Positions 26,752-50,565 of a stretch of 64,000 bases of DNA are shown here, in pieces. Numbering within the stretch: position 1 is the first letter of the stretch; every line of letters begins with the position of its first letter. The position numbers were made by a program, and so were the translations under genes. Origin of the DNA: a virus (lineage: Duplodnaviria > Caudoviricetes); IMG/VR virus record IMGVR_UViG_3300033068_000911, positions 5,537 to 69,536 of that record; one strand, written 5' to 3'. The notes below the pieces were generated by a model. It was not told where the DNA came from and did not search any database. It saw only the letters and a program-made list of their open reading frames with translations.

Positions 26752-28601
26752 TGCGCCGCGCCCTCGCCGCAGTTGCCCTCGCCCTGGCCTGCCTGACGTT
26801 CGCCGGTGGCTCCGCGTCTGCCGCACCCTCGCACCCGTCGATTGACATTCTCTGCAAGACACCCGCACCACCTGCGCAGGTACCGGGCAGTGGGCTTCGT
26901 GGCACGATGGGTGAAACGCGGCCTGATGATGCGGTCATTGATGCAAACAAGACGCTTCGCACTGACAACATCCTCGCAAACGGAGGATACGCCGGTCTTG
27001 AATCCACGGCGTATGACAACGGATGCGATGTTGATCCGACGAAACTCTATGATCGTATGGAAACGTCGATGCGCCTGAGTAAGGTCAATGCGATCGTGGC
27101 TTTCGGTCAGGGAATCTCGACACTCACGACAGCCATCGAGGCAAAGGTGTGGAGTCCCGACTGGATCGCTGGTCTTCTCGGACGTCTGGCAAAAGATGCG
27201 ATCACCCTGGTTTGGGATCGGTTCTGGGTTGCCGGGATGGTTTCGATTGGCCTCATCGCAACGACGGCAGCCTTGCTCTATCGAGCGATTCGCAACGATC
27301 CTTCCGGTGTCATCGGTGGCCTTGCTTGGATGGGGATCGTTCTCATCGGTTCGTCGTTCATCCTAGTGAATCCTATCGCCATCCCATCGGCTACCGTCGC
27401 AGCGGGGCAGTCGTTCGTCAATTCGATCAACTCTGGCTCTCAGGCCGAAACGGCGGCGACGGCGGTGCAGTATTCCGGATACTTGCGCCGAACGTTCGGA
27501 AGCGAAGATTCTGCGCTTGCGAAGGAATACGGGATTCCACTTCTCGCCGCTTCGCGTCTCTCGTGGGCCGAAGAGCGTGACACGGCCAACGATCCAAAGG
27601 CACGCGATGCGCTCATGGCGAAAGATGCAGCGGCATTCAAGAAGATTGCCGACGACATCAAGGAGCGCAGCCCGAATGACGTCTATCCGCGAATCCAGGG
27701 CCAGAAGCAAAGTTCAGGTGAAGCGCTATTCGAGGCGGTGGCGGCATTGTTTGTCAACCTGTTCCGGCTCATGACAGCATCGGTTGTTTTCATCGGTGCG
27801 ATCTTCATGGTAATTCTCGGAATCACGTGGCTCACAGCAGCGGCATACACAGTGACACCAGCGGGGCAAGCATTCGGTCGGTCACTATTCGACAAGATGA
27901 TGCTTTGCATTGCTAACATCGTCGTCTGTGCGATCGGAGCATGGCTTTACATCCTATGGACGCAATATGCCCTAGCGCCAGGAAACCCCGACTGGCTCGC
28001 AGTGTTCCTCATGGTTGTGGGAACCGTCGTTTTCTGGACTGCCGTGCGCCCAGATCGCAAGATGCTCTCGCTCATGTCGCTTGGACATATTTCGCCCACA
28101 AGTCAGCGAGGCTTGGGCCGACTCCTGAAGGGGCTCGCCTTCTCCTGGCTCGCCGGACGCGTCGCTGGTGAAACACTCAGGGAAGACAGGGAGTCGGAGG
28201 CCAGGCCAGACCCGACGCCCACTGAGCCGCCCGTCGTTGCGCCACCACCGCTCGCCATCGAGGCCGGACCGTCGCTCGCTCCGCAGGCCATCGAGGCGGC
28301 ACCCACGGAGCGTATCGTCCACGAAGGCGAAGTCATCCACCACGGAGAGCCGGGAGAAGGCGGCTTGCCGCAGAGTGCCGAACCGACGCCGGATGTCGTG
28401 GAGGGCGAGGTCATTTATCGCGAGCCGGAGCAACTGCCGGACGGGACGACGCCGTACCAGCGTCCGCTCGACGATGAGGATTCCGCCTCATCGCCACCGT
28501 CCGGAGCAGTCGGAGAGGTGGAACTCTACAATCGACCCGAAGGCTTTGCAGATTCCGACGAATCTGATACTGTCGCAACAGGATCAAGCGAAGGGAAGTG
28601 A
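26751..28601 (+). CDS. VirB6/TcpH/ConG-like channel protein
   Basis: Signal peptide, extracellular domain, several TM helices, long Pro/Glu-rich tail; follows VirB4. Confidence 0.7.
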   Translation: MRRALAAVALALACLTFAGGSASAAPSHPSIDILCKTPAPPAQVPGSGLRGTMGETRPDDAVIDANKTLRTDNILANGGYAGLESTAYDNGCDVDPTKLYDRMETSMRLSKVNAIVAFGQGISTLTTAIEAKVWSPDWIAGLLGRLAKDAITLVWDRFWVAGMVSIGLIATTAALLYRAIRNDPSGVIGGLAWMGIVLIGSSFILVNPIAIPSATVAAGQSFVNSINSGSQAETAATAVQYSGYLRRTFGSEDSALAKEYGIPLLAASRLSWAEERDTANDPKARDALMAKDAAAFKKIADDIKERSPNDVYPRIQGQKQSSGEALFEAVAALFVNLFRLMTASVVFIGAIFMVILGITWLTAAAYTVTPAGQAFGRSLFDKMMLCIANIVVCAIGAWLYILWTQYALAPGNPDWLAVFLMVVGTVVFWTAVRPDRKMLSLMSLGHISPTSQRGLGRLLKGLAFSWLAGRVAGETLREDRESEARPDPTPTEPPVVAPPPLAIEAGPSLAPQAIEAAPTERIVHEGEVIHHGEPGEGGLPQSAEPTPDVVEGEVIYREPEQLPDGTTPYQRPLDDEDSASSPPSGAVGEVELYNRPEGFADSDESDTVATGSSEGK

Positions 28602-31431: not shown

Positions 31432-33855
31432 GTGCGACGATACCCAACGCTTCCGTTGGGTGGATCGGAGATTATTGCTGTGTCAAATAGTACAGGATTG
31501 CTCTCAATCCCGGAGATTGATCCTGAGCAAGGATTGATTCACGCAGCGCTTAAATATGCGAGCGCCGGATGGTACGTGATTCCCGTTGAGCCTGAATCCA
31601 AGATGCCATCCAAGAGATTCAGGCATTGGGCCGAGGCGTCGAGTCGCGATCCTGAAGAGATTGTCGGATGGTTCACGGGAACGAGCGACCTCCTCGCTAT
31701 CCATGCTGGCCGATCAGGTGCGGTTATCTTCGATGTCGACGATCCGGATATCGTTCCCGAACGGCTTAGCGCCCACTTCACAAAGAACGTTCCGTTTCAA
31801 TCGACGCGTGTTGATAGGCCAGGGCGGGGGCACTACGTCTTCGCCCAGCCGGAAGGTCGAATGCTCGGCAATTCGCGCGGAGAACTGGGCACCTCAAAGT
31901 GGGGTGAAATTCGCGGCACGAATGCGATCATCGTCGTTTCGCCATCTACCCATACGAAAAAGGGTGGTCGGTACCAATGGATGCAGCACGGTCCCGTTCC
32001 TGTTCTGCCCGCCGATCTTGCGAACGCGCTTCCGGACTACACGGGCAAGATCGGCTCAGCGAGCAACAAGGCCGTTCAGGCGTTCCTCGCGGCACACATC
32101 AGCCAATCGGACAAGCTCCTATTGCGAGCCGTCATCGACAAGTTCCGCCTAGAAGCGAAGAATGGGCGTCATGAGGCACTTGTTGCTCACCTAGCGCAAG
32201 CCATGCGCGAGGCGGCGATGGGTTTCTACTCGGCACAGAATGCAGTCGATGAACTGCGCATCGAGTGGAATCGCGTCATGGTTGGTGAGGCCAACTTTCG
32301 AAAGGTGTCCGAGTTTGAATCTGTGCTTTCTTGGGCAGTCGGTGCCGCGCTTGATCTACTGGGCGATCCCGACAAGTTGGCGTCACGGAAGTTAGATATC
32401 GAGAAGCGCATCGCTGACACGAAGATCATGCCGGAACTCGATGCACCCAAGGCGACCGCTTATCAGCCGGAACTTGCATTCGCTCGACCCGAACGGCCCT
32501 CTCGCCCGCCGACGCGTGATGTTGAAGACTATTTCGACAAGGCTGGCCCAAAGGTTGCGCTTATCGCAGAAGATGTGCAGGGGCTCAGCCTTATTCGCGT
32601 AGGCGAGGACAATACGTTTTGGAAGTATCTGGATGGTGGCGTATGGGTGCGAGACAAAGGGATCGTCACATCGCGGTGCGTCACTCTCCTGGCCAACAGG
32701 TTTCGCAATGGCCATGCAGCAGCCGTCAACACGGTGGTGCAGTACAGCGTGCCGCGCTTGAAAGCCGATCCGACCGAAGAGCACATGAATTTTCTTAACG
32801 GGATGCTTGAGTGGCGAACCGGAAAGATGGTGCCACACTCGCCGGACTTTTGCTCAACCGTGCAGTTTCCGCACGAGTGGCAGCCGGACGAGACAGAATG
32901 CCCGATGTTCGATAAGTTTCTAGAATCCGTTCTTGAGCCCGACTACGTGCAGATCGCCTGGGAGATGATCGGGTATCTCATGATGTCAGGGAATCCGCTT
33001 CAGAAGGCATTTATGCTTGTGGGCACTGGGGGGAACGGCAAGGGAACGCTTATCCGCGTAATTGAGGATATTCTGGGCAGGCACAACTGCGCTTCACAAT
33101 CACTCGACGCACTGAAGAATCGGTTTGCACCTGCAACGCTGCACGGGAAGATAGCCAATATCGCCGGAGACATCGACAAGACTTATCAGGAATCGACGGC
33201 ACAGTTCAAGGGCCTCACTGGCGAAGATACTCTATCGGCTGAGTATAAATACGGAGATTCGTTCATGTTCCGTAACTGGGCGGTGCCGGTCTTCTCAGCC
33301 AACGCAATCCCCGGATCGGCTGACACGAGCAAGGGATACTTGCGACGTTGGGTGCCGATCATGTTCAATCGCACGATCAGCGACGATAAGGCGAAACCTG
33401 GCCTCTCGCTCGAACTGAGCCAAGAGGCCCCTGCGATCATGACCAAGGCTGTCGCCGCATTGCGCGTGATGATGGAGCGCAACCACGGGAAAGGTGCGTT
33501 TCACACGTCACAGGAAATTCAGGAAGGCCTGGAGGACTTTGCGAAGAACATTGACCAGATCAGAATGTGGCTGGACTCAGAGAAGGTCGTCGTTCGCGAG
33601 GAAGTCCATCAGTCGCGCACCGATTTGTTTGCTGCCTATAAGGCATGGGCACAAGAGAATCACTACGGAATGCTGAGTTCCGGGGAGTTCTATCGGCGAC
33701 TTTCGGGCATCAACGGTATCCGTGAGGTCAAGATTCGCGGAAACCGGCATTTCAGAGGCGTGGCGATCGTGGAAACGACATTGATCGAACGAGGCAGAAC
33801 GGTGCGCCAGCAAGGCCACCTACACGCAGTAAACGACGATGAAGGTGACATATGA
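31432..33855 (+). CDS. Bifunctional primase-polymerase fused to D5/P4-type SF3 helicase
   Basis: Prim-Pol motifs GWYVIPV, FDVDD, GRGHYVF, EIRG...SPSTH; helicase GTGGNGKGT, AEYKYG, NAIPG, RRWVPIMF. Confidence 0.9.
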   Translation: MRRYPTLPLGGSEIIAVSNSTGLLSIPEIDPEQGLIHAALKYASAGWYVIPVEPESKMPSKRFRHWAEASSRDPEEIVGWFTGTSDLLAIHAGRSGAVIFDVDDPDIVPERLSAHFTKNVPFQSTRVDRPGRGHYVFAQPEGRMLGNSRGELGTSKWGEIRGTNAIIVVSPSTHTKKGGRYQWMQHGPVPVLPADLANALPDYTGKIGSASNKAVQAFLAAHISQSDKLLLRAVIDKFRLEAKNGRHEALVAHLAQAMREAAMGFYSAQNAVDELRIEWNRVMVGEANFRKVSEFESVLSWAVGAALDLLGDPDKLASRKLDIEKRIADTKIMPELDAPKATAYQPELAFARPERPSRPPTRDVEDYFDKAGPKVALIAEDVQGLSLIRVGEDNTFWKYLDGGVWVRDKGIVTSRCVTLLANRFRNGHAAAVNTVVQYSVPRLKADPTEEHMNFLNGMLEWRTGKMVPHSPDFCSTVQFPHEWQPDETECPMFDKFLESVLEPDYVQIAWEMIGYLMMSGNPLQKAFMLVGTGGNGKGTLIRVIEDILGRHNCASQSLDALKNRFAPATLHGKIANIAGDIDKTYQESTAQFKGLTGEDTLSAEYKYGDSFMFRNWAVPVFSANAIPGSADTSKGYLRRWVPIMFNRTISDDKAKPGLSLELSQEAPAIMTKAVAALRVMMERNHGKGAFHTSQEIQEGLEDFAKNIDQIRMWLDSEKVVVREEVHQSRTDLFAAYKAWAQENHYGMLSSGEFYRRLSGINGIREVKIRGNRHFRGVAIVETTLIERGRTVRQQGHLHAVNDDEGDI

Positions 33856-34067
33856 AAAAGCTATGGCGGCGCATCTTCCCGCGCCGATCCTGGTACGTCC
33901 TGGCGCTTGAAGAGGGTGGCTGGACGGTGCTCTCGGTGCATCGGACGCGCCTGGATGCATACTTAGCGCTCCCGGTGGGATCGGGTGCTGAGTACTGGGT
34001 CGCACGCTCTCGCGAGACCGACCTTGTCGGTGCCTACTGGCAGGGTGTGACCCATGACGACAACTGA
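33852..34067 (+). CDS. Hypothetical protein
   Basis: ATGA coupling to the primase gene. Confidence 0.5.
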   Translation: MKKLWRRIFPRRSWYVLALEEGGWTVLSVHRTRLDAYLALPVGSGAEYWVARSRETDLVGAYWQGVTHDDN

Positions 34068-35139
34068 CGCATCCTTCGATTCGCCCGCCCTGGACCACTT
34101 TGCTGACGATGCAGGCATGGAGCGCCCAGAGCGCACCGAGGACCGAGTGGACCGTGATCGCTGGGGCAAGCCGCGCATCCTGCCGCTCGGAGAGTCCATG
34201 CCAGGCACCGAGGCTGCACGCAAGCGAGCGCTCCGCTCCTACTACCGTCCATCTTCATTTGCCGAGGTCTTGGAAAATCACTGGAATTTAGAGCGGTGGA
34301 GCGAGCGGATGATGGCGAACGGACTCATGGCTGAGCGACGCCTCCGTGCGGCCTATGCGGCCATCGGGCCGACTGAGGAGAGCTCCGAGACCAAAGAGGC
34401 GGCGAACAACGTCCTGGCCGAGGCGAAGAAAGCGGCCAGGGCGCTGGACAAGGCCGACGAGGGTACGGCGGTCCATGCGCTCACCGAGCGCCATGATCTT
34501 GGGCTACCGATCAGCTTCGTGCCCGACGAGTTCGCCGGGAATCTCGATGATTGGAAGCGACTCACTGCATGCTTCGAGATTGTCGATGTCGAGTGCTTCG
34601 TCGTTGAGGATCAGTATCGCCTTGCCGGAACGTTCGATCGGCTCGTGAAGTATTACGAGCCGTGCCCGAATTGCGGAGCCGTCTATTATATCGCCGACTT
34701 GAAGACGGGCACGATCCAGTGGGGCGGCATGAAGATGGGCGCACAACTCGGAATCTACGCACACGGGGCTTATTACGATCCGACGACTGGCCTACGTACC
34801 CCGCTACCGCAGGTCTGCCAGTGCCGAGGCATCATCTTCCATATCCCATCCGGCCAGCCGTACGGCTCTGGTGAGCGCAAGTGGCTGAACATTGGGCAGG
34901 GCTGGAATCTCGCCGTTCGCTTGGCTCACGAAGTGCGTGAGGCGCGCAAAAAGTCGAATTGGTGGCTAGACTTCACCGAGGGGCCAAACCTCCCTGCGAT
35001 GGTCTCGGATGCGACTACACGCGAGGAACTGGTGGCGCTCTATCGGCTCTACAAGAGTCACTGGCGCGAAGAGCACACGACGCTGGTCAACGTGAGGCTG
35101 ACCGAGATTGCGAGTAGTAATGGATGCGAAGAGGGCTGA
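34054..35139 (+). CDS. PD-(D/E)XK exonuclease (RecB/Cas4-like)
   Basis: GTAVHALTE, LAGTFDRL, IADLKTG and AQLGIYA motifs. Confidence 0.85.
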   Translation: MTTTDASFDSPALDHFADDAGMERPERTEDRVDRDRWGKPRILPLGESMPGTEAARKRALRSYYRPSSFAEVLENHWNLERWSERMMANGLMAERRLRAAYAAIGPTEESSETKEAANNVLAEAKKAARALDKADEGTAVHALTERHDLGLPISFVPDEFAGNLDDWKRLTACFEIVDVECFVVEDQYRLAGTFDRLVKYYEPCPNCGAVYYIADLKTGTIQWGGMKMGAQLGIYAHGAYYDPTTGLRTPLPQVCQCRGIIFHIPSGQPYGSGERKWLNIGQGWNLAVRLAHEVREARKKSNWWLDFTEGPNLPAMVSDATTREELVALYRLYKSHWREEHTTLVNVRLTEIASSNGCEEG

Positions 35140-36364: not shown

Positions 36365-36820
36365 ATGGCGACTGAGCAGGAACGCCTGATCGAGAAGTAC
36401 CAGAAGGCCGTTGAGCGCGCCGAGAAGCGCGTTGAGCGACTTGGCGCGAAGGTCGAGAAGGCCAATGCTCGCCGCCAGCGCAGTGCGGACGAGATCGCCA
36501 AGGCGAAGGATGCCAAGGTGCGCGCCGAGGAGCGCATCGAGCGCGCCGAGCAGAAGGCGCAGCGCGCCGAGGAGTCCATTCAGCGCAGCCTTGAGCCCGT
36601 TCGTCGGGCCGAGGGTGTTCTCAACGAGGCGAAGTCTCGCCTTGAGTGGTCCAAGGCGATGCCGTCTGGTGGCGTCGTCGAGGTCGTGGAGGATGCGGAC
36701 TTCGACTCCGGTGTCGATGACGACGACTTCGAGGAAGAGGACTTCGACTCCGACGAAGACGAAGACCTTGAGGATGACGAAGAGGTCGAGGCTGAGCAGG
36801 AAGAGGCTCTAGTTTTCTGA
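36365..36820 (+). CDS. Coiled-coil protein with very acidic C-terminus
   Basis: Heptad-rich K/E/A/R N-terminal region, then a D/E tract. Confidence 0.65.
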   Translation: MATEQERLIEKYQKAVERAEKRVERLGAKVEKANARRQRSADEIAKAKDAKVRAEERIERAEQKAQRAEESIQRSLEPVRRAEGVLNEAKSRLEWSKAMPSGGVVEVVEDADFDSGVDDDDFEEEDFDSDEDEDLEDDEEVEAEQEEALVF

Positions 36821-36825
36821 GTCCT

Positions 36826-36869
36826 GCGAAAAGGGCGGTGTTCCGGTAACGGGATTCCGCCCTTTTCGC
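36826..36869 (+). terminator. Intrinsic terminator
   Basis: gcgaaaagggcgg / ccgcccttttcgc inverted repeat. Confidence 0.65.
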
Positions 36870-36887
36870 ATATCTGAAAGGATATCG

Positions 36888-37445
36888 ATGGCAAAAAAGC
36901 CATGCGCGTGCGGGCAAGATAAGGCGAAGCGCCGCACACGTTGCATCGAGTGCTGGCTACGCGCTCAACCGATGCAGTATCGTGCCGAAGTTGCGAAGCG
37001 TCGAATCTCGATGATCCCCGAAGAGTTTCGACTCAAGCGCGTACCGAAAGACGATTGGCCACCAGGGCGGCGTTGGTGTGCAGGATGTCAGTCGTTCGTC
37101 TTACTGAAGGATGCGTCAGCATCTCGATGCAAGGCGTGCCTCTCGATCGGCGCGCACGCGTCAGCAGTACAGCGGACGTACGGCATCAGCGCCGATGAGT
37201 ACAACGCGATCCTCGCGGCACAGGGCGGTCGCTGCTATATCTGCCAGCGACAGACACGCACCAGGCGGCTCGCTGTCGATCACGACCATGCAACCGGCGA
37301 AGTGCGCGGCCTCCTCTGCGCCGACTCAGAGCGCGGCTGCAACCACGCGATCCTGGGAAACATTCGCGATGTCGAGATGGCTCGCAGGATCGTCGCCTAC
37401 CTGGAGAGCCCGCCCGCGCGGCGAGTGTTAGGAGCGTCACAGTGA
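36888..37445 (+). CDS. Recombination endonuclease VII-like protein
   Basis: YGISADEYNAILAAQGGRCYIC...LAVDHDHATGEVRGLLC...CNHAILG. Confidence 0.9.
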   Translation: MAKKPCACGQDKAKRRTRCIECWLRAQPMQYRAEVAKRRISMIPEEFRLKRVPKDDWPPGRRWCAGCQSFVLLKDASASRCKACLSIGAHASAVQRTYGISADEYNAILAAQGGRCYICQRQTRTRRLAVDHDHATGEVRGLLCADSERGCNHAILGNIRDVEMARRIVAYLESPPARRVLGASQ

Positions 37446-37675
37446 CCCTGTTTACCAATCCGTACGAAGACCTGTTCTCGGGGGCCGCAACGACGCTCCG
37501 CGAAGACGAGACGATCTGGGCGTCACCGCAGGTCATTGAGGCGGCGGCAGCGCTCATGGATGCGTTTTCGCGACACTATGCGGTCATGGATGCCGTCAGG
37601 GTCGCGAAGAAGCCAGGGAAGGCCGAGGCCGCAGCCCTCGCCCTGGCCACCGAGATTCGCCGTCAGCAGGCTTGA
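37442..37675 (+). CDS. Hypothetical protein
   Basis: GTGA-type coupling, GGAG SD. Confidence 0.5.
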   Translation: MTLFTNPYEDLFSGAATTLREDETIWASPQVIEAAAALMDAFSRHYAVMDAVRVAKKPGKAEAAALALATEIRRQQA

Positions 37676-37721
37676 CAACCAGTTAACTACTGTGCGAAAG
37701 TGGGGTTATGGCGAAAGCCAG

Positions 37722-37766
37722 ATCATCCTCTCTCCCGAATGGCGACGGGTCGGGAGAGAGGATGAT
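37722..37766 (+). other. Perfect 17-bp hairpin in the leader of the tmRNA-like RNA
   Basis: atcatcctctctcccga / tcgggagagaggatgat. Confidence 0.85.
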
Positions 37767-37772
37767 TCCAAA

Positions 37773-37853
37773 GGGGCCGGAATCGGTTTCGACGGTGATC
37801 TAAAACCTCCTGTAGGAAGTCACCGGACCTGGGTTCGATTCCCAGCGGCTCCA
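37773..37853 (+). ncRNA. ssrA: Mini-tmRNA: tRNA-like domain only
   Basis: Acceptor GGGGCCG/CGGCTCC with G3:U70 and discriminator A; stemless D-loop ...GGTTTCGAC; P2 GGTGA/TCACC; GAC then T-arm CTGGG-TTCGATT-CCCAG; only 21 nt where the mRNA-like domain should be. Confidence 0.85.
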
Positions 37854-37854
37854 C

Positions 37855-38043
37855 ATGGCAATCATTATCCACGAATTGCAGGGATTAAGCGACAATCCCG
37901 ATGAGATGTGGTGGCACTGCCGCTGTGGGCAGTATGAGACATATTCGAGAGTTCCGGAAAACCTCGGTGACCTCGCGCCGTGGAAGTTCCTCATCACTCA
38001 GTTCGAGGGACATGTCATCATATCGGAGGAGTCGGGGCGATGA
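37855..38043 (+). CDS. Small CxC-containing protein
   Basis: WWHCRCG; ATG starts 2 nt after the mini-tmRNA discriminator. Confidence 0.45.
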   Translation: MAIIIHELQGLSDNPDEMWWHCRCGQYETYSRVPENLGDLAPWKFLITQFEGHVIISEESGR

Positions 38044-38225
38044 GTCATGATGAGTGGTCGATCGAACTAACCGATGAGTCTGTCGTATGGCGCTGCGAAT
38101 GCGGCGCAACTGGCGAGCGTAGGCGACCTTATCGGTTCACGGATGACCAGATGCGCAGGGTTGCGACCTGGGCGCTCAATACTCACGCGAGGCGGGCGCG
38201 TATTCTTAGGGAGACTCGGTGGTGA
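38040..38225 (+). CDS. Small CxC-containing protein
   Basis: VWRCECG; ATGA coupling. Confidence 0.5.
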   Translation: MSHDEWSIELTDESVVWRCECGATGERRRPYRFTDDQMRRVATWALNTHARRARILRETRW

Positions 38226-38389
38226 ATCACACATTGAGGGTAGTGATCGGCACCATTATCACGACAGCCGTAGTGGCCCTTGTGCTCATATTCTTAGGCA
38301 TTGGCAACCCCGCGCTTATCGCAATCTTCGCCAATGTAGCGATGACATCTACGTTCGCTCTCTATGCTCTATTTGGACAGAAGCTATGA
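38222..38389 (+). CDS. Small two-TM membrane protein (55 aa)
   Basis: Read manually (MNHTLRVVIGTIITTAVVALVLIFLG...); overlaps both neighbours. Confidence 0.5.
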   Translation: MNHTLRVVIGTIITTAVVALVLIFLGIGNPALIAIFANVAMTSTFALYALFGQKL

Positions 38390-38661
38390 TTCGCATTCGT
38401 GCGATCTGCCGAACGTGCCGGACTATCGCTCGGTTCGATCTTGACGAGACGGCGAAGCAACAGGCCTGGTGGATGAAACACGACGGTCATGAGCGCGAGT
38501 TGACACGAACTCGGATTCGCGCGGGAGCACAGCCGCTTCCAACCGGGCGCAGTTTTGGAGTTCTCGCCTTCTGTCAGCGGTGCATCAGTGGCGACTATCT
38601 CAAGGATTTTGACAAGGAATATGATGCATGGTCCGCGAGACACCGCACTTGCAAGCTTTAG
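38386..38661 (+). CDS. Zn-binding hypothetical protein
   Basis: Duplicated CxxC...H pattern (CRTC, CQRC). Confidence 0.55.
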   Translation: MIRIRAICRTCRTIARFDLDETAKQQAWWMKHDGHERELTRTRIRAGAQPLPTGRSFGVLAFCQRCISGDYLKDFDKEYDAWSARHRTCKL

Positions 38662-38795
38662 TTACGAAGACGTCGCCCGTCAACGAACGCTCGCGCTAGT
38701 TGCGCTTGGGTTTACGTGCGACGATCCGGAATGGGCCAAGCACCCATTCCCCACATTCCCGTGCATGAGCACGGCACACAGAAAGGGAGGCACAC

Positions 38796-38948
38796 ATGAA
38801 GAAGGTTCTCATCGCAATGGTCATCGCGGGGGCGAGCGTGACCGTCGCTGCTCCGGCAATGGCTGCGCCGACGAACGGAACGGGGCCGTCGATCACGGTT
38901 CCGTCTGACTCGGGTCAGTTCATCCTGCGCAAGACGCCTCGGTGGTGA
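38796..38948 (+). CDS. 50-aa secreted peptide precursor
   Basis: GAAAGGGAGG SD; Sec signal MKKVLIAMVIAGASVTVAAPAMA; predicted mature part APTNGTGPSITVPSDSGQFILRKTPRW. Not in the ORF track. Confidence 0.7.
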   Translation: MKKVLIAMVIAGASVTVAAPAMAAPTNGTGPSITVPSDSGQFILRKTPRW

Positions 38949-39310: not shown

Positions 39311-39771
39311 AGAAGGAATCCAAGTCATTTCATTGGCTCGTAGAAAACATGTACGAATGCGAGATTACGATGATCGCCGCGCATTGGCATGTTATGCACG
39401 CCGCTGCAACTATGAATGAGCAAATCTGCCCTGCGCAGGACAAGATGGCACTTGCGATCACGCATAGCATCCATGAGCAACTTGACGATGCGCTAGCAAG
39501 CGCGCTGCCCAATAATGCATTCGAGTCTCCCGATCCGAATCAGCTTCTCACGACAACGATCACCGTACCTGTCCTCATCGCGGGAATCGCACAGGTGCAA
39601 GACATCGTAACAATGATGGGTGACATCGAGGCTGATGTCCTTCTCCTCTCGCACAATGCTCCACATCTCGACTTGAAGCGCTATGGAAGTGCGACCCTTA
39701 CGTCACTGTGGGAATATGTAAGGTTCCGCGGCTCAGAGGAACTGAAGCACATGAAGGTTATCATTCCGTGA
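39307..39771 (+). CDS. Hypothetical protein
   Basis: ATGA coupling. Confidence 0.55.
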   Translation: MKKESKSFHWLVENMYECEITMIAAHWHVMHAAATMNEQICPAQDKMALAITHSIHEQLDDALASALPNNAFESPDPNQLLTTTITVPVLIAGIAQVQDIVTMMGDIEADVLLLSHNAPHLDLKRYGSATLTSLWEYVRFRGSEELKHMKVIIP

Positions 39772-41342
39772 GTTCAACACTCCCGAAAGCTACAATTGAG
39801 GCGGTACGCGCGGCAGCGCGCATCTCGCCGGGATTTGTGCGCTGCGCAGGATGTGGCCGGGTGTACTCCGAACGGGAATGCCACATCGACCACATTGTGC
39901 CGGAAGCGGACGGCGGATCACATGATCCCGCGAATCTGCAAATTCTCTGCGCCCCTGCGAAAGGCAAGGGGTGTCATCGAGTCAAGACGAGAATCGAGGC
40001 GAAGAAGAGGGCCAGGGCGCGGGGCGGGGCGGACCCGTGGTCCATCGTGGCTGGCGCTGGCTTCGTGGGGGTTGGTGGCCTCGGGGCCTACGGGCTCGCA
40101 ACCGGCGCGCCGATCGCGGGGCTCATGCAGGATGCGGCGCTGTATGTCGGCGTGGGGGCGGCACTGGGGCTCGCGGCCACGCATCTCCTGCCCCCGCGCC
40201 AGATGGCGATCCGTGAGTCACTGAGCGAGGATACGGCAGTCTTGCCGGTAACCGGGTCCGGCGACCTGGCGGACCGCGCGCTTGCCGCCCTGGCCCCCCT
40301 GATGGGCGAAATTGACGTCAGTGCGACGACGATCGGAGATGGGCGAAAAGGTGTCGTCGTGGCGTATGGATCGGACGTTTCCGATCATTCGGAGGCAGAG
40401 AGGCTGAAGGTCCAAGAGCGCACGAACATGAAGCTCGGGGGCCGATGGGAGCTTTTGTGGAACGGCACACGGAATGAACTGACGATCGTGCCGCGTCCGA
40501 CGCTCCCCCGCATGATTCGCCATCCTGGATTGCCAGACGCACGGAAATGGTACGAAATCCCCATTGGACCGCAGGCGACCATTGACTTGTCTGTGACGGC
40601 CCACGTTCTCATCACTGGCACAACGGGCTCAGGCAAGACGTCGGTCATGCGAAGCATCGTCCTAGCGGCGACTGACTCCGCGAAGCGAGGTGAGGCTGAA
40701 GTCATCCTGGCTGATCCGAAGCGCTGTGAACTCATCGGATTCCGTGGCTGGCCAGGTGTGCGCGGCGTCATGACTGACGACGACTCGTTGTGGGATATGC
40801 CGATTCGCCTACGCAAGGAGATGGAGGAGCGTTATCGCAAGAGCGAGGAAGAAGGCGTGCAACTCGGCTCGTTCACGCCGATCATCGCCGTTATTGATGA
40901 GTATCGAGAGTTTGCCGCACGAATGCGCGGCATGTATGCGATGAACGATCCGATCACTGGGAAGCCTCGTCGCATCACCGGCCAGTCGGAGCCAACACCA
41001 TTACTTGCGGTCGGCTCACTTCTCTCGATGGCGCGCATGTGTGGAATCCACCTCATCATCGGCACTCAACGCGCCGATGCCAAGATCGTCGGTGGTGATT
41101 CGCGAGACAATATCCAAGGTCGGGTTGGCGTCGGGCCACTGAACAAGGATGCTGCATTGATGCTTTTTGACCGTTCAGATTACGGTCGCGACCTTCCCGC
41201 CGACGCGAAGGGAAGGATCACATTTCAGCAGGGCGATGGGGGCTTTATTGAGGACCAGAGTTATTGGGTTCCCGATCCGGGCGACGCCAAGGGAACGAAT
41301 GCGGAGGAGGACTGGGAGCACCTAGAGAGGCTGAAGGCATGA
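39768..41342 (+). CDS. HNH endonuclease - TM - FtsK/SpoIIIE-type ATPase fusion
   Basis: CAGC...HIDHIVPEADGGSHDPANLQILC...CHRVKT; two TM segments; GTTGSGKT, ILADPK, VIDEY, ARMCGIHLIIGTQR. Confidence 0.85.
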   Translation: MSSTLPKATIEAVRAAARISPGFVRCAGCGRVYSERECHIDHIVPEADGGSHDPANLQILCAPAKGKGCHRVKTRIEAKKRARARGGADPWSIVAGAGFVGVGGLGAYGLATGAPIAGLMQDAALYVGVGAALGLAATHLLPPRQMAIRESLSEDTAVLPVTGSGDLADRALAALAPLMGEIDVSATTIGDGRKGVVVAYGSDVSDHSEAERLKVQERTNMKLGGRWELLWNGTRNELTIVPRPTLPRMIRHPGLPDARKWYEIPIGPQATIDLSVTAHVLITGTTGSGKTSVMRSIVLAATDSAKRGEAEVILADPKRCELIGFRGWPGVRGVMTDDDSLWDMPIRLRKEMEERYRKSEEEGVQLGSFTPIIAVIDEYREFAARMRGMYAMNDPITGKPRRITGQSEPTPLLAVGSLLSMARMCGIHLIIGTQRADAKIVGGDSRDNIQGRVGVGPLNKDAALMLFDRSDYGRDLPADAKGRITFQQGDGGFIEDQSYWVPDPGDAKGTNAEEDWEHLERLKA

Positions 41343-41722: not shown

Positions 41723-41940
41723 TGGACTCAGAGCAGAGGCACCGGCACGCGCTGCGCATCGCGCGAGAAGCCATTGAGAGCATCGAGTTTTTGACCATTG
41801 CGGAAGATGATGAAATTGCAGAAGCAATGGATGGCTTCACTAGCGAAGAGGTTGAGGCAACCTGGGCTGACATTCACATGATCGCCACTCGTTACACTGA
41901 GGTGCGCATTATCCCCTCTCGCAAGATTCGCAACGACTGA
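41719..41940 (+). CDS. Hypothetical protein
   Basis: Last rightward gene; overlaps the 3' end of the sigma gene. Confidence 0.45.
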   Translation: MMDSEQRHRHALRIAREAIESIEFLTIAEDDEIAEAMDGFTSEEVEATWADIHMIATRYTEVRIIPSRKIRND

Positions 41941-42557
41941 GTATGAATCTGGCTGATTCGTGATCCGCTCACACCGAGAGCCTGTGCGATCTTGTCGCGA
42001 GTGATTCCTCGCCAGTAGATATCGTGCATGATTCTCGCTTGGCGCTCGGTGAGGCTTCCCAGGGCCTCATCGAGCGCCTTTGCATGTCTCTCATGAAATG
42101 AATATCGCGTTTGGCTTGGCGCTACCGGATCGTGGATTTCAACGTCGATAGACAGCGGCGCGCCAGCCGCCCTGGCCAGCAGGGTCGCTTCCACGTGCTT
42201 CAGTGGCACTTTGAGTTCGTCGGCCAGTTCGATGTTCGTAGGTTCGCGTCCGAATTGCATCGAGAGACGATGATTCGCATCCTTCAGTTCCTTGATGCGA
42301 AGCTGCATTGTCCGCGCTACAAGGCTTTCCTTGCGTACGTCATCAATGATCTTCAGTTCGATGCGCTGCCATGCCCAACGTTTCGCAGAATATCCCTTGT
42401 TAGGATCGAATGTCTTCGCGGCGATGAAAAGGCCTTCCCACGCGGCTGGCTCCAGGTCATCGGCGTCAATCCACGCAGGAAGGCGTGCGGCGACTTGAAT
42501 GGATATGACTCTGGGAAGTTGAGCAAATTCGATACAGAACTTCTCGGTCGCATCCAT
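41892..42557 (-). CDS. Sigma-70 family factor, FliA/WhiG (group 3) type
   Basis: Region 2 DADDL...EGLFIAAKTFDPNKG...IIDDVR; region 3 REPTNIELADEL; region 4 LTERQARIM...IAQALGVSGSRISQIH. Confidence 0.88.
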   Translation of the reverse strand: MDATEKFCIEFAQLPRVISIQVAARLPAWIDADDLEPAAWEGLFIAAKTFDPNKGYSAKRWAWQRIELKIIDDVRKESLVARTMQLRIKELKDANHRLSMQFGREPTNIELADELKVPLKHVEATLLARAAGAPLSIDVEIHDPVAPSQTRYSFHERHAKALDEALGSLTERQARIMHDIYWRGITRDKIAQALGVSGSRISQIHTQSLRILREGIMRTSV

Positions 42558-42572: not shown

Positions 42573-43391
42573 CTACATAGCCCCCCACGTCTTCGGCCCA
42601 ACGAGGCCATCGACTGCGATCTTAGCCTTGCGCTGCCAGTTCTTGACGGCAGCCTTCGTCGCCCCACCGTAGTAACCATCGGCTCGCGTCCCGGCTATTG
42701 ACTGGATACGGCTGACGTTGTATCGGTCGGCAGCGCGAGCCCCGGAATGGCTTCGGATCGTTCCATCGTTCGGGCCGTACCAGTGGCCACGGGCGAGTGG
42801 AAATGGACCACGAATGACGACCCCAGTAGGCGGTGGCGCAGTAGCGATCGGGGGCATCGGCGTTCCGCCATTTGCAGCCCTGATCCACGAAAGATACTCG
42901 GACCATGGGAAATTCTTCCCGACATCATGATGATCCGAAAGTCGATAGACCTGAGATGCCTGGCTGTGCGCGATGATCCCCGCGTAACCGGCCCTCAGTT
43001 GCGAGTTGGTCAGGTGTCGAATCGGGATGTTGTGGCGCGCGCAGATGCCCGCGACAAGGGGCGCAGACATATTGCGAAGCATTGACGTGGAGTAGGCGTC
43101 CAGCCACTTCTCCCGCGTTTGTGACGCATATCCTGCATGTTCGAGTTGGATGCCGTCAGCATTTGCCCCCGGTGCCGCAAAGGCCGTATGCGCCTCGCGG
43201 ACACCTTGGATGATGGTGTTGTTGTCGATGTAGTAGTGCGCACTCGCCATGGGCGAGTTCCCCGCGCTAAAGTACCCCGCACACCATTCCGCCGCGTTCT
43301 CACGCTCGGGATACTCCATATCGTGAATCACAACAAGCCGGACTGCGCGAGTCCGGCCTGCGTGGAAATTCTTAGCTTGCTTGAAAAGCAT
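42573..43391 (-). CDS. Endolysin: N-acetylmuramoyl-L-alanine amidase + peptidoglycan-binding domain
   Basis: VVIHDME, SAHYYID, GIQLEH, GIIAH...DVG; C-terminal ADGYYGGATKAAVKNWQ...DGLVGPKTW; AGGAG SD before ATG at 43391. Confidence 0.88.
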   Translation of the reverse strand: MLFKQAKNFHAGRTRAVRLVVIHDMEYPERENAAEWCAGYFSAGNSPMASAHYYIDNNTIIQGVREAHTAFAAPGANADGIQLEHAGYASQTREKWLDAYSTSMLRNMSAPLVAGICARHNIPIRHLTNSQLRAGYAGIIAHSQASQVYRLSDHHDVGKNFPWSEYLSWIRAANGGTPMPPIATAPPPTGVVIRGPFPLARGHWYGPNDGTIRSHSGARAADRYNVSRIQSIAGTRADGYYGGATKAAVKNWQRKAKIAVDGLVGPKTWGAM

Positions 43392-43428
43392 GACTTCTCC
43401 TGGTCGGGGCCAGAGTGGCCCTTCCAGG

Positions 43429-44235
43429 CTAGCGCCTACCGTAGGAAAGCTTCGCAGGGAACACTGCGGACACGTACTGTGACAAAAGTCGCGCCGACTC
43501 GAAATCGTCACCTTCGATACAATCTGCCATGCGCCGGGAGGCCAGGGCGGCGCGGTCTCTTAGCCGCGCTGCCTGGGGCGACTCCGTGAGCACCTTCGCA
43601 CTGAGCACGCGCTCAGTCAGCATTTGGCGTGGATCGGTAAGTCGGCTCGGGTCGATGTGCAACATGACGCCGCCTGTCTTTTCCTCCGAAAAGCTCTTGA
43701 TCGTGGCCACAAGCGTACGTTCTGGCTTGCCGCTGTGTGGTCGCGCGTAGGTCAGTGCCGTGCGATTTCCGGGCGTCAGCGCCCACGGGACGGGCGGCGG
43801 CTCAAGCATCGGCAGATCGGTGCTGATCGTTACTTCGGTGGCCTCGGGCTGCCCAATGAACGCCAGGGAGATGCGCCAGGCGCGAAGCTCCGGACATCCA
43901 TCGACGGCGAGCCCCACGATGAGATACGCGGGCGAATGGTCTGGCGTGGCCAGGTCGGTGGTCGATGGGACTGGAGCCGATGACGGGTGACTGTGCACAA
44001 CCGCCAGGTGCTCCATCGTTGGCCGGGACTTAAATGCGGCGATCACCTCGGGTGGATTCATCGCAAAAGCTGAACGTGGCTCCGGGTGCACATTGGAAAT
44101 AGGCTCATACTCAGAGCCCATCCCACGGCGGCCAAATATCAATCCGCACGCTTCGCGATCCTTCGATTTCTCGACTTGCGCATGATTGATGACTTGGCGG
44201 ATCACATCGGCGGTAACGTTCAGCGAATGATTCAC
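43429..44235 (-). CDS. JAB/MPN (JAMM) metalloprotease + unknown C-terminal domain
   Basis: REACGLIFG and complete VHSHP...PSTTD (HxH-x7-S-x2-D) motif. Confidence 0.85.
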   Translation of the reverse strand: MNHSLNVTADVIRQVINHAQVEKSKDREACGLIFGRRGMGSEYEPISNVHPEPRSAFAMNPPEVIAAFKSRPTMEHLAVVHSHPSSAPVPSTTDLATPDHSPAYLIVGLAVDGCPELRAWRISLAFIGQPEATEVTISTDLPMLEPPPVPWALTPGNRTALTYARPHSGKPERTLVATIKSFSEEKTGGVMLHIDPSRLTDPRQMLTERVLSAKVLTESPQAARLRDRAALASRRMADCIEGDDFESARLLSQYVSAVFPAKLSYGRR

Positions 44236-44798: not shown

Positions 44799-44977
44799 GA
44801 GGGGAGCTCCACCAGGTCGGCGGGCGACCCATCCTCATAGAAAGCTTCGTCAGGATAGGCAGTCAAGCATTCGCAGCCGATAGGTTCATTGAGCCCTGGG
44901 CCGTGATATTCGTAAGTCGTTCCGGTGCCTTGACATTCGGGGCACTGCTTGTCGGCGTACCACTTCACTTCGTTCAC
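44795..44977 (-). CDS. Small Zn-finger protein
   Basis: CPECQGTG...CEC. Confidence 0.5.
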   Translation of the reverse strand: MNEVKWYADKQCPECQGTGTTYEYHGPGLNEPIGCECLTAYPDEAFYEDGSPADLVELPS

Positions 44978-45585
44978 TTGTCCTGCACCTCTTCCCCTCC
45001 GCCGACAAGCGTGGGCATGTCGCCGTAATCAATGCCAGTGGCGAGAAGCGTTTCACCGCAAGCGCCCCGCCTCTTATCTTTGAGAAGATTGACTCTCATA
45101 TCTTCCGCGATGTAGCGACCCGTGTCGGGCAGAAAGTACCCAACGGTCACATGGGGAATGTATTGATTCTGCGTATTGACGTGCGGAAGGCGCGACAGCC
45201 TTTTATTCGCCTCACTGCAAAGGTTAGCGCTCCGTCCAAACAAAACGCCGACAACGCAGTCATATCCATCACCCTGGAAAACCTCAAAGCCTCCAATATC
45301 GACGGTGTCGCAACTCCACCCTTCGAGAGTCATGTCAACGTAGGGTTTCATCTCATGCCCGGACTTCATGAGACCGTAGATGAGAGTCACGTGCGGTGCA
45401 ACTTCTGCACCGTTAGCGATACAGCCTCCCGGTAGTGGTCCCCGGTAGGCGAGCGGTTCGCAGATCGCCGGAAGGGCCGAGTAGGGCGTGACCTTCATTC
45501 CTACGTAGCCAAACTGTGGGCCGATGCCCATCTCTTCGTGGATGCGACGCATCTTCAGCAGATGAATCGCTGACTCTTTACTCAT
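44974..45585 (-). CDS. 2H phosphoesterase, Acb1/T4 57B-like
   Basis: Two HxT motifs (PHVTLIYG, YIPHVTVGY) with a FEVFQGDGYDCVV...LSRLPH segment between them. Confidence 0.8.
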   Translation of the reverse strand: MSKESAIHLLKMRRIHEEMGIGPQFGYVGMKVTPYSALPAICEPLAYRGPLPGGCIANGAEVAPHVTLIYGLMKSGHEMKPYVDMTLEGWSCDTVDIGGFEVFQGDGYDCVVGVLFGRSANLCSEANKRLSRLPHVNTQNQYIPHVTVGYFLPDTGRYIAEDMRVNLLKDKRRGACGETLLATGIDYGDMPTLVGGGEEVQDK

Positions 45586-45739
45586 TGTCTGGGTTACCTT
45601 TCTCCTCGGATGCCCTGTTGTCGCGAGCCGTCTTGACGAACGCCCAAACCAGAATGACCATGATGTAGCCAACCGTGAAAACGACAATGGCCAAGATAAT
45701 GACCGTGATAAACCACGTAATGAGGGATTGAATGTCCAT
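45578..45739 (-). CDS. Small single-TM protein (53 aa)
   Basis: Read manually: MDIQSLITWFITVIILAIVVFTVGYIMVILVWAFVK... Confidence 0.5.
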   Translation of the reverse strand: MDIQSLITWFITVIILAIVVFTVGYIMVILVWAFVKTARDNRASEEKGNPDNE

Positions 45740-48760: not shown

Positions 48761-48975
48761 TCCTTGTGACGATCCTCGTCGTCATCATAGTTGTTACAAT
48801 CGGAGATTCCTGTGTCACTGCCGGATAGCCAGTAGACATGGCAGTGAGTGCAGTAGTATTCGTTATCATCGTTTTCAAGTCGGTCGCCGCATCGACTGCA
48901 ATATGCGGTAAACTCGATATGCGGAACGGGCTCCGATTTACTTTCTCCGTCAGTGAAATCGATCATTTCTACCAT
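48736..48975 (-). CDS. Small Zn-ribbon protein following array 5
   Basis: GAAGGGA SD; CSRCG...CTHC. Confidence 0.55.
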   Translation of the reverse strand: MVEMIDFTDGESKSEPVPHIEFTAYCSRCGDRLENDDNEYYCTHCHVYWLSGSDTGISDCNNYDDDEDRHKECWKGSQK

Positions 48976-48985
48976 GATGTCCCTT

Positions 48986-49051
48986 CGTCCTTGCCTTGCC
49001 CCGCCATGCCGAGCCTCGCCCAGCCAAGCCGAGCCCGGCCTCGTTGCGCGT
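48986..49051 (-). ncRNA. GGC-NN pentamer array 5 (candidate guide RNA)
   Basis: CGCAAC-GA, then GGC + CG,TC,TT,TG,GA,TC,AT,GG,AA,AA, then GGA-CG; strict 5-nt period. Confidence 0.8.
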
Positions 49052-49087
49052 CTCGCGCAGGTGTGAAACTGCGCGAAACTTGGATAC

Positions 49088-49160
49088 TGCCCTTGCCTTG
49101 CCCCGCCATGCCCTGTCATACCATGCCACGCCTTGCCTTGCCGGGCCAAGCCCTGTTGCG
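49088..49160 (-). ncRNA. GGY-NN pentamer array 4 (candidate guide RNA)
   Basis: CGCAAC-AG, then NN = TT,CC,AA,AA,GT,AT,AT(after GGT),AG(after GAC),AT,GG,AA,AA. Confidence 0.8.
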
Positions 49161-49191
49161 CTCCCCGGTGAGGTGTCGAGCCTCACCGGGG

Positions 49192-49246
49192 ATTCCTTGC
49201 CACGCCTTGCCGTGCCCGGCCATGCCGTGCCAGGCCTCGTCAGGTC
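49192..49246 (-). ncRNA. GGC-NN pentamer array 3 (candidate guide RNA)
   Basis: GAC-CT, GAC-GA, then GGC + CT,AC,AT,CG,AC,AA,GT,AA, then GGA-AT. Confidence 0.75.
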
Positions 49247-49722
49247 TGGTGATTGAGAACTTCGGCCATTTCGCGCTCGCGGCGCATCGCTGCCGCGATA
49301 GCCTGCTCTGCCGCTGCTGTCGCCACGATGTGACGACCGAAGCGGTTGCGCACTGCATTCGTTGCGTTCGTCAGATCGGGCGTTTCTAGCGTTTTCCGCG
49401 CACGCTTCATTGCTTTTCGTGAGCGCTCCTGGTGCCGCGTCGCAAGGGTCAAGTGATCTTCCACGCTGATGATCTGGTAGCCAACGAGGCGCACGGTCTC
49501 AGCGGTGCGGTGGTCGTCCTCCTGAAGCTTGCGCCGCGCTCGTTGAGAGAGTTGCTGTAGTCGCTGCAAGCCATCTTTTGAATGGGGCAGCATGAGCAGA
49601 TCGAGAAGTTCGGCATACTTGACAATCTCGCCTTCCGACATATCGCGGAGCCGGTCATAAATCTTCTGCCAGTCTTCGATCTTGTCGCGAACGGGCACCT
49701 CGTGGGTGATGGTGTCGGTCAC
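49240..49722 (-). CDS. Accessory protein of the RAMP operon (wHTH-like N-terminus, helical C-terminus)
   Basis: WQKIYDRLRDMSEGEIVKYAELLDLL...VRLVGYQI; lies between the RAMP-like gene and array 3. Confidence 0.6.
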   Translation of the reverse strand: MTDTITHEVPVRDKIEDWQKIYDRLRDMSEGEIVKYAELLDLLMLPHSKDGLQRLQQLSQRARRKLQEDDHRTAETVRLVGYQIISVEDHLTLATRHQERSRKAMKRARKTLETPDLTNATNAVRNRFGRHIVATAAAEQAIAAAMRREREMAEVLNHQT

Positions 49723-49768
49723 TCTTCCTCTCCAATCAGGTCAGTCATGCTAGGAATTTCTTTCAATG

Positions 49769-50344
49769 CTACGACACCTTTTCCAGGATCACGGAGAAGC
49801 GACCGAAACGCGGACGCCAGTCGCCAAGGCCGACGAATCCAGAACGGCCCACGATGGCCGAGAAGTCATCCCATGAAAGCGTGGAATCATCCAGCATCCC
49901 CGTCGTTTCAATGCTCCACTCGCTGAACTGCGGACGCGTGCGCATCACACGAGAGTTCGTCACGCGGACGGAACTCACGTTGCGGAACTGCGGGTGCTCC
50001 CAAAGTCCATCGGCGTCGCGAGGGCCGTCGTACCGAAGCGGAATCTCCAGGTTGTCGAGAATCAACGACTTAATGACCGCCTGGCCGTGCCGCGTCGCCT
50101 TGCCCGCGTCCTGAATGCAGCGCACGAGGTTCGCGTCCGGAATGTAGGGGCCGTTCTTGTTGATATAGAGACCGGCGACGAACTCAAGCCGCTGGAGCTC
50201 TTCGATATCCTTGTCGGTCTTATTCGTCTTCTTCGACGTGATGGCCTTCATGGCCTTCGTGATCGGGTCACTCGGATCAACCGAGCGATCCGAGTGCATG
50301 AGAAGGGGAGTGATGCCCTCGATGAAAATGTGGAACTTCTGCAT
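49769..50344 (-). CDS. Stand-alone Cas7/RAMP-like RNA-binding protein (Vipr-like), 191 aa
   Basis: N-terminal strand FIEGITPLLMH, GPYIPDANL (compare Cas7 PYIPGSS), RTRPQF..W, C-terminal Gly-rich loop GFVGLGDWRPRFGRF. Confidence 0.8.
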   Translation of the reverse strand: MQKFHIFIEGITPLLMHSDRSVDPSDPITKAMKAITSKKTNKTDKDIEELQRLEFVAGLYINKNGPYIPDANLVRCIQDAGKATRHGQAVIKSLILDNLEIPLRYDGPRDADGLWEHPQFRNVSSVRVTNSRVMRTRPQFSEWSIETTGMLDDSTLSWDDFSAIVGRSGFVGLGDWRPRFGRFSVILEKVS

Positions 50345-50365
50345 TGTCTTGCCTCTCGTCGTTGT

Positions 50366-50428
50366 TTGCCTTGCCTTGCCGTGCCGCGCCTTGCCGTGCC
50401 AAGCCGTGCCGAGCCCCGCCAAGTTGCG
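50366..50428 (-). ncRNA. GGC-NN pentamer array 2 (candidate guide RNA)
   Basis: CGCAAC-TT, then GGC + GG,TC,AC,TT,AC,AA,GC,AC,AA,AA,AA. Confidence 0.8.
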
Positions 50429-50470
50429 TTTCCCAATGAGGAGTCGAACCTCATTTCGACCATCCGAAAA
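50429..50470 (-). other. tRNA-elbow mimic between arrays 1 and 2
   Basis: TTTTCG-GATGGTCGA-AATGAGG-TTCGACT-CCTCATT-GGGAAA: canonical T-loop with a D-loop-like GG bulge. Confidence 0.65.
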
Positions 50471-50524
50471 AACCCTGCCACGCCCTGCCGTGCCATGCCA
50501 GGCCTAGCCTGGCCACGTTTCGCC
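50470..50524 (-). ncRNA. GGY-NN pentamer array 1 (candidate guide RNA)
   Basis: GGC-GA, AAC-GT, then GGC + CA,TA,CT,AT,AC,AG,GT,AG, then GGT-TT. Confidence 0.8.
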
Positions 50525-50535
50525 CTGGTGGTGCT

Positions 50536-50565
50536 AGCTTAGCGCACCGATTCCCGTCGTTTCAA
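50536..50565 (-). promoter_or_regulatory. Promoter of the RAMP/array operon
   Basis: TTGAAA-N18-TAAGCT followed by GCACCAC, as in the other right-arm promoters. Confidence 0.7.

Follow-up and report, generated by a model that had tools for sequence, protein, structure and literature searches.

Covariance models and a scripted segmentation confirmed, at the level of sequence, that the 81-nt element at positions 37773 to 37853 (+ strand) is a real gene for a tmRNA consisting of the tRNA-like domain (TLD) only, a mini-tmRNA of the same kind as that of mycobacteriophage DS6A. The stretch of DNA analyzed, hereafter the window, comprises 64,000 nucleotides (bases 5537 to 69536 of the 69,536-bp IMG/VR record IMGVR_UViG_3300033068_000911; completeness about 96% by CheckV). 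An Rfam scan of the window and of the whole genome returned a single RNA match at gathering level, the tmRNA model RF00023 at 37773 to 37856 (+), with a score of 67.1 bits against a gathering cutoff of 47 bits (E = 5.6e-24, computed over the window). The alignment covers model positions 1 to 374, with 15 nt standing in for 306 internal positions. A second covariance model (R1), built from 18 other phage sequences with the window element left out, scored the element at 73.7 bits (E = 4.9e-14). The first-pass annotation had proposed a TLD-only tmRNA on this strand together with a covariance-model search to check it; the Rfam match above the cutoff and the R1 score bear the proposal out. The segmentation divided the gene as follows.

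37773 to 37853, + strand: mini-tmRNA (TLD-only) gene, 81 nt (Rfam tmRNA model, family model R1, and segmentation)
37773 to 37779, + strand: acceptor 5′ strand, GGGGCCG
37780 to 37792, + strand: D-region, 13 nt, stemless, with GGTTTCGA at its 3′ end
37793 to 37799, + strand: P2 5′ strand, CGGTGAT
37800 to 37818, + strand: 19-nt insert in place of the mRNA-like domain
37819 to 37825, + strand: P2 3′ strand, GTCACCG
37826 to 37828, + strand: GAC
37829 to 37845, + strand: T-arm, CTGGG/TTCGATT/CCCAG, with a 5-bp stem and a 7-nt loop
37846 to 37852, + strand: acceptor 3′ strand, CGGCTCC
37853, + strand: discriminator A (A73)

The acceptor is of the alanine type expected of tmRNA: a 7-bp stem (GGGGCCG/CGGCTCC) with G3:U70, followed by A. 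The stemless D-loop (GG..UUCGA), the GAC/GGAC around P2a, and the T-arm likewise agree with tmRNA in both the cmscan alignment and the segmentation. Segmentation recovered every hallmark named in the first-pass annotation (G3:U70, the discriminator A, the stemless D-loop, GAC before the T-arm, and the TTCGATT loop) and corrected two of its measurements: P2 has 7 bp rather than 5, and the replacement of the mRNA-like domain is 19 nt long rather than 21. The P2 pairs (C:G plus 6, U.G among them) are bracketed by the tmRNA-typical GAC and GGAC. The bases after position 37853 are CAT, so that CCA is not encoded, as had been noted before. The insert consists of an A-rich 5′ loop (CUAAAA), a 3-bp hairpin, CCU(CCUGU)AGG, and then AA, which is the layout of the family consensus described below (uAAAr, a CC...GG hairpin with a small loop, and A(n)), and it is too short to hold a tag reading frame or pseudoknots. 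As in DS6A, both TLD halves lie within about 75 to 90 nt and P2 is closed by a short capped loop. Two other identities were considered and rejected. A canonical full-length tmRNA is at odds with the 19 nt between the P2 strands and the 306 missing model positions; for tRNA-Ala, segmentation finds no anticodon arm in the element, and ARAGORN calls no tRNA anywhere in the whole genome, the window included. ARAGORN also reports nothing for the mini-tmRNA itself, in the window or in the whole genome. The minimum free energy (MFE) fold of the single sequence (−32.2 kcal/mol) differs from the canonical cloverleaf-like structure (−29.3 kcal/mol; z-score, −1.4). Because single-sequence MFE folding is uninformative for tRNA-like RNAs, we used covariation across related sequences in its place.

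The element belongs to a family of more than 150 IMG/VR loci. A first search pattern, consisting of TTCGAC, a gap of 20 to 50 nt, and GGAC with the T-arm and 3′ acceptor end but leaving the 5′ acceptor strand unspecified, matched at least 119 viral contigs. In 114 of the 119 listed, the 5′ strand pairs with the 3′ acceptor strand at 7 of 7 positions. These paired matches represent 81 unique sequences among those listed, of which 70 are 77 to 81 nt long; CCA is encoded in 35 and absent in 46. Their common layout runs from the acceptor through the D-region, a P2 of mostly 5 to 10 pairs, an A-rich loop (uAAAr), and a small CC...GG hairpin to one to three bases, GAC, the T-arm, and the acceptor. 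Across 86 family sequences fitted to R1, 96.2% of cells form standard pairs, compared with 42 to 55% when the partners are slid by 1 to 3 columns; changes on both sides occur in 18 of 23 pairs, and the covariation score is 0.581 versus 0.119 in shuffles (0 of 500 shuffles reach 0.581). Fitting to R1 biases this alignment toward the structure; fixed motifs, however, pin the positions of the acceptor, T-stem, and outer P2 pairs, for which the same result was obtained in the unfitted segmentation.

A second pattern, which left the acceptor stem unconstrained, yielded 38 further loci, 36 of them with a 7/7 acceptor stem. In all 36 loci with a complete acceptor, G1-C72, G2-C71, G3:U70, and A73 are present; pairs 4:69, 5:68, and 6:67, in contrast, differ among loci and covary. 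Because this identity set is invariant even where the search left the acceptor free, alanine charging, through recognition by alanyl-tRNA synthetase (AlaRS), appears to be under selection in the family. Two related loci that match the pattern (L066, 6663 to 6744; L023, 3851 to 3932) form only 5 of 7 acceptor pairs (GGGCGCG...) and reach about 29 bits under R1; diverged or decaying family relatives are a possible explanation.

Viral matches to the pattern are nearly all of the mini form. When a relaxed pattern was applied to bacterial genomes (185,579 species), the mini layout was found in 5 of the 116 scorable matches listed. Most of the other listed bacterial matches have a tmRNA-type 3′ acceptor strand and resemble the 3′ ends of ordinary full-length tmRNAs, and ARAGORN called full-length tmRNAs in 78 of the listed bacterial loci. 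The mini form is enriched in viruses. Among the five bacterial or metagenome-assembled genome (MAG) records with the mini form (L265, L283, L321, L327, and L364) are Butyrivibrio, a Pseudanabaenaceae cyanobacterium, and a Saccharibacteria MAG; such copies may belong to prophages or be tmRNAs of the cells themselves that lack a coding sequence. We also asked if the combination of A-rich loop and CC motif is just the universal P2a/P2b junction of full-length tmRNAs; it is present in only 7 of 78 of these, mostly of the gammaproteobacterial type, and we base no claim on it.

Carriers of the mini form were also found among cultured phages. A blastn search of the element against 50,697 phage records gave partial matches only, from which carriers were identified on follow-up; a search with positions 37600 to 38000 gave no match in cultured phages. 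Stenotrophomonas virus Jojan60 (ON045087.1) has a complete, unannotated mini-tmRNA (82.4 bits with R1; locus L202, 1452 to 1531) that adjoins a tRNA cluster just upstream of the DNA primase gene. Streptomyces phage LuckySocke (OR725497.1), whose host is Streptomyces lividans, likewise has a complete, unannotated mini-tmRNA (82.4 bits; locus L201, 1456 to 1533), here inside a tRNA cluster. In mycobacteriophage DS6A (JN698994.1), R1 finds the published element at 28478 to 28557 (61.2 bits; locus L208, 1501 to 1580), between gp33 and the DNA polymerase III gene, where the GenBank record has no annotation. Similar partial blastn matches occur in Streptomyces phages Alone3 and pSt2308, with no annotated feature there, and in GiJojo, beneath a coding sequence annotated as a hypothetical protein.

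DS6A is the single phage example that we found in the literature. It is listed as "TLD only" by Hudson, Lau and Williams (PMC4131195) and in the tmRNA Website under tmID 11587, and it supplies the precedent that the first-pass annotation mentioned. According to the passage of PMC4131195 that cites Mao et al. 2009, a molecule similar to that of DS6A is a strong inhibitor of tmRNA in both chargeable and non-chargeable form, perhaps through titration of SmpB; as that passage has it, the experiment concerned an Escherichia coli analogue. A 2025 tmRNA database paper (PMC11915505) repeats this account of DS6A and the inhibition and names no second phage case. The literature searched does not mention how large the family is, that ARAGORN overlooks it, or that its alanine set is invariant. 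A survey of phage tmRNAs based on ARAGORN reported 402 of 18,146 genomes (PMC9004378). Because ARAGORN calls just 2 of 125 members of the family, such surveys would miss the mini form. Mini-tmRNAs are common in phages but go unannotated.

In the window, the gene sits inside a rightward block of replication and recombination genes. The features of this region to which we refer below are the following.

31432 to 33855, + strand: primase/polymerase
34054 to 35139, + strand: PD-(D/E)XK exonuclease
36888 to 37445, + strand: endonuclease VII (PF02945, 7.5e-22; phrog_307, 8.4e-37)
37442 to 37675, + strand: small upstream open reading frame (ORF), 77 aa, with a coding-like codon-position GC profile
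37672 to 37677, + strand: TTGACA hexamer overlapping the TGA stop (37673 to 37675) of the upstream ORF; unsupported as a promoter
37721 to 37767, + strand: stable hairpin with an 18-bp stem, −33.8 kcal/mol, no U-tract (folding)
37855 to 38043, + strand: small downstream ORF, 62 aa, with a coding-like GC profile (0.52/0.40/0.67)
39708 to 41342, + strand: HNH-FtsK

The ATG of the 62-aa ORF (37855) starts 1 nt past the discriminator base. The 77-aa ORF has no family match, and tblastn found no homologue of the 62-aa ORF in cultured phages. A 122-aa ORF that overlaps the mini-tmRNA is probably no gene, its codon-position GC profile being flat. The 62-aa ORF and the ORF at 38040 to 38225 (+) stand in tandem with an ATGA start/stop overlap and have in common a W[HR]C[RE]CG motif (pairwise E = 0.009). 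The two products are possibly paralogues that bind zinc, and no homologues of the pair were found in cultured phages. A leftward block begins farther on, with a sigma-factor-like gene at 41892 to 42557 (−; phrog_351, 1.7e-18), an endolysin at 42573 to 43511 (−), and a gene at 44974 to 45687 (−) with a weak match to an RNA-ligase PHROG (phrog_755, 6.6e-5). Within 48975 to 50565 (−) are runs of a GGCNN pentamer repeat, and between them, at 50435 to 50465 (−), lies GGATGGTCGAA together with a 6-bp hairpin bearing a TTCGACT loop, a D-loop-like plus T-arm-like "elbow" with no acceptor stem. This site near 50.4 kb (−) was considered as a second TLD-like element and rejected: R1 matches the T-arm-like hairpin only, at 10.8 bits.

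No SmpB gene was found in the whole genome. The major capsid protein shares 68% identity with its counterparts in Arthrobacter phages, and the primase about 40% with mycobacteriophage primases; the host is therefore probably an actinobacterium. Many actinobacterial tRNA genes likewise lack an encoded CCA. No relatives were found through the downstream ORF at 38074 to 38661, and none of 80 loci carrying relatives of the endonuclease VII has a mini-tmRNA within 3 kb; one such contig (L123/L080) has one at another position, about 10.5 kb away. Neither of two metagenome scans detected a near-identical element. The first gave no match; the second yielded 5 loci that have the acceptor stem in common with the element but whose P2 and insert are unrelated to it. 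Since no close relative carries the element at the same place, conservation holds for the family rather than for this phage lineage.

We also examined how the RNA might be expressed. The TTGACA hexamer to which the first-pass annotation pointed at 37672 (+) is indeed present, but a role as a promoter found no support: no −10 box lies at the proper spacing, and a promoter scan found no sigma-70-like promoter in 36800 to 38800. A terminator scan found no intrinsic terminator near the gene. The hairpin at 37721 to 37767 ends 5 nt short of the RNA 5′ end. Of the 123 family members with sufficient flanking sequence, 36 (29%) have a strong hairpin within 60 nt upstream, compared with 4% downstream and a background of 5% by definition; none of these upstream hairpins is a tRNA. 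The simplest reading would be that RNase P and 3′ processing excise the RNA from a longer transcript and that the hairpin forms the protected 3′ end of the upstream message. Upstream of the hairpin, GUGGGGUU at 37700 to 37707 (+) can pair with GGCUCCAC in the 3′ acceptor strand in the MFE fold of a 185-nt region, which is possibly an alternative pairing in the precursor and may also be chance. In 10 sampled loci, the next downstream gene encodes primase (twice), DNA polymerase, or DnaB helicase in four independent lineages, and in three further loci belongs to phrog_2554, an unknown family. Because the DNA polymerase III gene of DS6A and the primase gene of Jojan60 are placed in the same way, these loci, though a small sample, suggest that the preferred site is the head of replication modules and hence that expression is early or middle.

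Given these features, we consider it rather probable that the mini-tmRNA is charged with alanine, competes with host tmRNA for SmpB and stalled ribosomes, and so suppresses tagging. It would be transcribed along with the rightward replication-module genes, excised by host RNase P and 3′ trimming enzymes, and given its CCA by the host CCA-adding enzyme. AlaRS would then load alanine by way of G3:U70 and A73, and host SmpB would bind through the D-loop and the GAC/GGAC region. In consequence, host tmRNA would be outcompeted for SmpB, EF-Tu, and stalled ribosomes, and trans-translation tagging would be suppressed during infection. That the RNA is transcribed, processed, charged, and bound by SmpB, and that it affects the host, are all points that we infer. 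The gene keeps every feature needed for recognition by AlaRS, EF-Tu, and SmpB and has nothing decodable, from which we expect that the RNA must compete with host tmRNA; lacking a resume codon, a tag frame, and pseudoknots, it could add no degradation tag. In light of tmRNA-ribosome structures, the insert, which lies some 7 bp away from the elbow, is not expected to extend as far as the decoding center. Charging would go beyond simple titration, because inhibition in the E. coli test needed no charging and yet the alanine set is invariant in nature. This invariance favors a charged RNA over a purely passive decoy, and we think that in nature the RNA carries alanine and gains entry to stalled ribosomes. 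Counting against the charged competitor are the lack of a recognizable promoter and of a close relative with the element at the same place. It also counts against this reading that some phages need trans-translation and that others carry full-length tmRNAs.

The same features can be read in another way, as those of a tag-free rescuer. Alanyl-mini-tmRNA with SmpB would enter the stalled ribosome and take the nascent chain, and the chain with one extra alanine would be freed by drop-off and peptidyl-tRNA hydrolase or by an alternative rescue factor; ribosomes would be recycled, and the phage products of cut or non-stop mRNAs would avoid the degradation tag. The alanine identity set, invariant in loci found without requiring it, is in keeping with such rescue, as are the tRNA-like, narrowly kept length and the location among early or replication genes. 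The P2 and hairpin would be short enough to pass through the ribosome like a long variable arm, to judge from what Bessho et al. reportedly described in 2007. A ribosome left with no message in the A site may, however, just stay blocked, and the sole experiment cited, as the passage of PMC4131195 relates Mao et al. 2009, shows inhibition and not rescue. We regard this tag-free rescue as unlikely.

Two further explanations take the RNA product to be incidental or functionless. If the element were a cis-acting processing signal (tRNA punctuation), RNase P and RNase Z would cut apart a hairpin-capped upstream message and a downstream message starting 1 nt before an ATG, and the released RNA would be a by-product. 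The hairpin end 5 nt upstream, the ATG of a coding-like ORF 1 nt downstream, the enrichment of upstream hairpins in the family, and the failure to find a promoter for the element itself all fit this proposal. Such a signal would have no need of G3:U70, A73, the tmRNA-specific D-loop, or GAC/GGAC, yet all are kept; few family members (5 of 106) have an ORF that begins within 5 nt of the element, so that such a start is not typical of the family, and many members have their own −10-like box or upstream terminator. Processing as the main function strikes us as quite improbable. That the element is a functionless remnant, either the attP core of an ssrA-integrating phage, as the first-pass annotation had allowed, or a decaying full-length phage tmRNA, we regard as scarcely credible. 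Phages do harbor tmRNA 3′ fragments beside integrases: in mycobacteriophages Shandong1 and Milly, such a fragment lies about 90 nt upstream of a tyrosine integrase, which fits the attB-9 class, in which the attP core of a temperate actinophage overlaps the tmRNA gene (PMC10865867). These fragments, from which the 5′ half is missing, reach only about 12 bits under R1, compared with 73.7 bits for the window element, in which the two halves are both present and in register. Neither a tyrosine nor a serine recombinase domain (PF00589, Phage_integrase; PF00239, Resolvase) is present in the whole 69.5-kb genome (about 96% complete), and decay would not produce a compact layout with covariation that recurs in more than 150 loci.

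A bolder reading is that mini-tmRNAs are not passive SmpB sponges: the alanine-charged RNA would enter stalled ribosomes and end trans-translation without a tag, as a widespread phage countermeasure to rescue. We advance this reading tentatively and consider it doubtful. Were it correct, phage proteins from damaged or nuclease-cut mRNAs would escape proteolysis, or ribosomes would be held, and the mini-tmRNA might in turn be sensed by host defense proteins that contain SmpB-like domains (CoCoNuT systems, PMC11090510). A phage RNA able to turn off or reroute trans-translation would be a simple takeover device made of RNA only. The choice between a decoy and a tag-free rescuer is directly testable, given the large family, the invariant alanine set, the frequent location at the heads of replication modules, and the carriers cultured on harmless hosts, such as LuckySocke. 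Annotation of mini-tmRNAs should rely on covariance models instead of tRNA or tmRNA finders. Trans-translation itself is close to universal in bacteria.

Several known systems resemble the window element in part. The attP cores that overlap tmRNA genes have T-arm and 3′ acceptor sequence in common with it; in contrast, they contain the 3′ part of tmRNA only and lie directly beside a tyrosine integrase, whereas the window element is complete and its genome has no integrase. The tmRNAs of Mallomonadaceae plastids that lack a coding sequence (about 65 bp; PMC11915505), and other organellar forms without one, are likewise cut down to the tRNA-like domain, but they belong to organelle lineages, are non-viral, and are presumed to be part of the cell's own system with a nucleus-encoded SmpB (PMC11915505). 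Full-length phage tmRNAs (Bxz1-like and Wildcat mycobacteriophages, Streptomyces phage Faust, and Gordonia phage GMA2) have the same tRNA-like domain; they are 350 to 410 nt long with a tag reading frame (ANSKNASAYALAA in Faust), where the window element has 19 nt. The full-length tmRNA of GMA2 (KR063281.1, 60389 to 60800, −; locus L368) measures 412 nt, scores 94.6 bits with Rfam, and adjoins a tRNA cluster, with no feature annotated there.

The closest counterpart is DS6A. The two elements are alike in architecture and size, in an identical acceptor (GGGGCCG/CGGCTCC) with G3:U70 and A73, in the stemless D-loop, the short P2, the A-rich loop with a CC...GG hairpin, and the absence of an encoded CCA; both lie next to replication genes, and both are matched by R1 (61.2 bits for DS6A and 73.7 bits for the window element). 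They differ in that DS6A has GTCGAC and GCAC where the window element has TTCGAC and GGAC, and the T-stem differs as well. The DS6A element falls under the Rfam cutoff (43.2 bits), whereas the window element exceeds it; the former is upstream of the DNA polymerase III gene and the latter downstream of endonuclease VII, and the phage lineage and probable host are different. Taken together, these comparisons indicate that this kind of mini-tmRNA was already known from DS6A and that the window element is a further case, from a different phage lineage.
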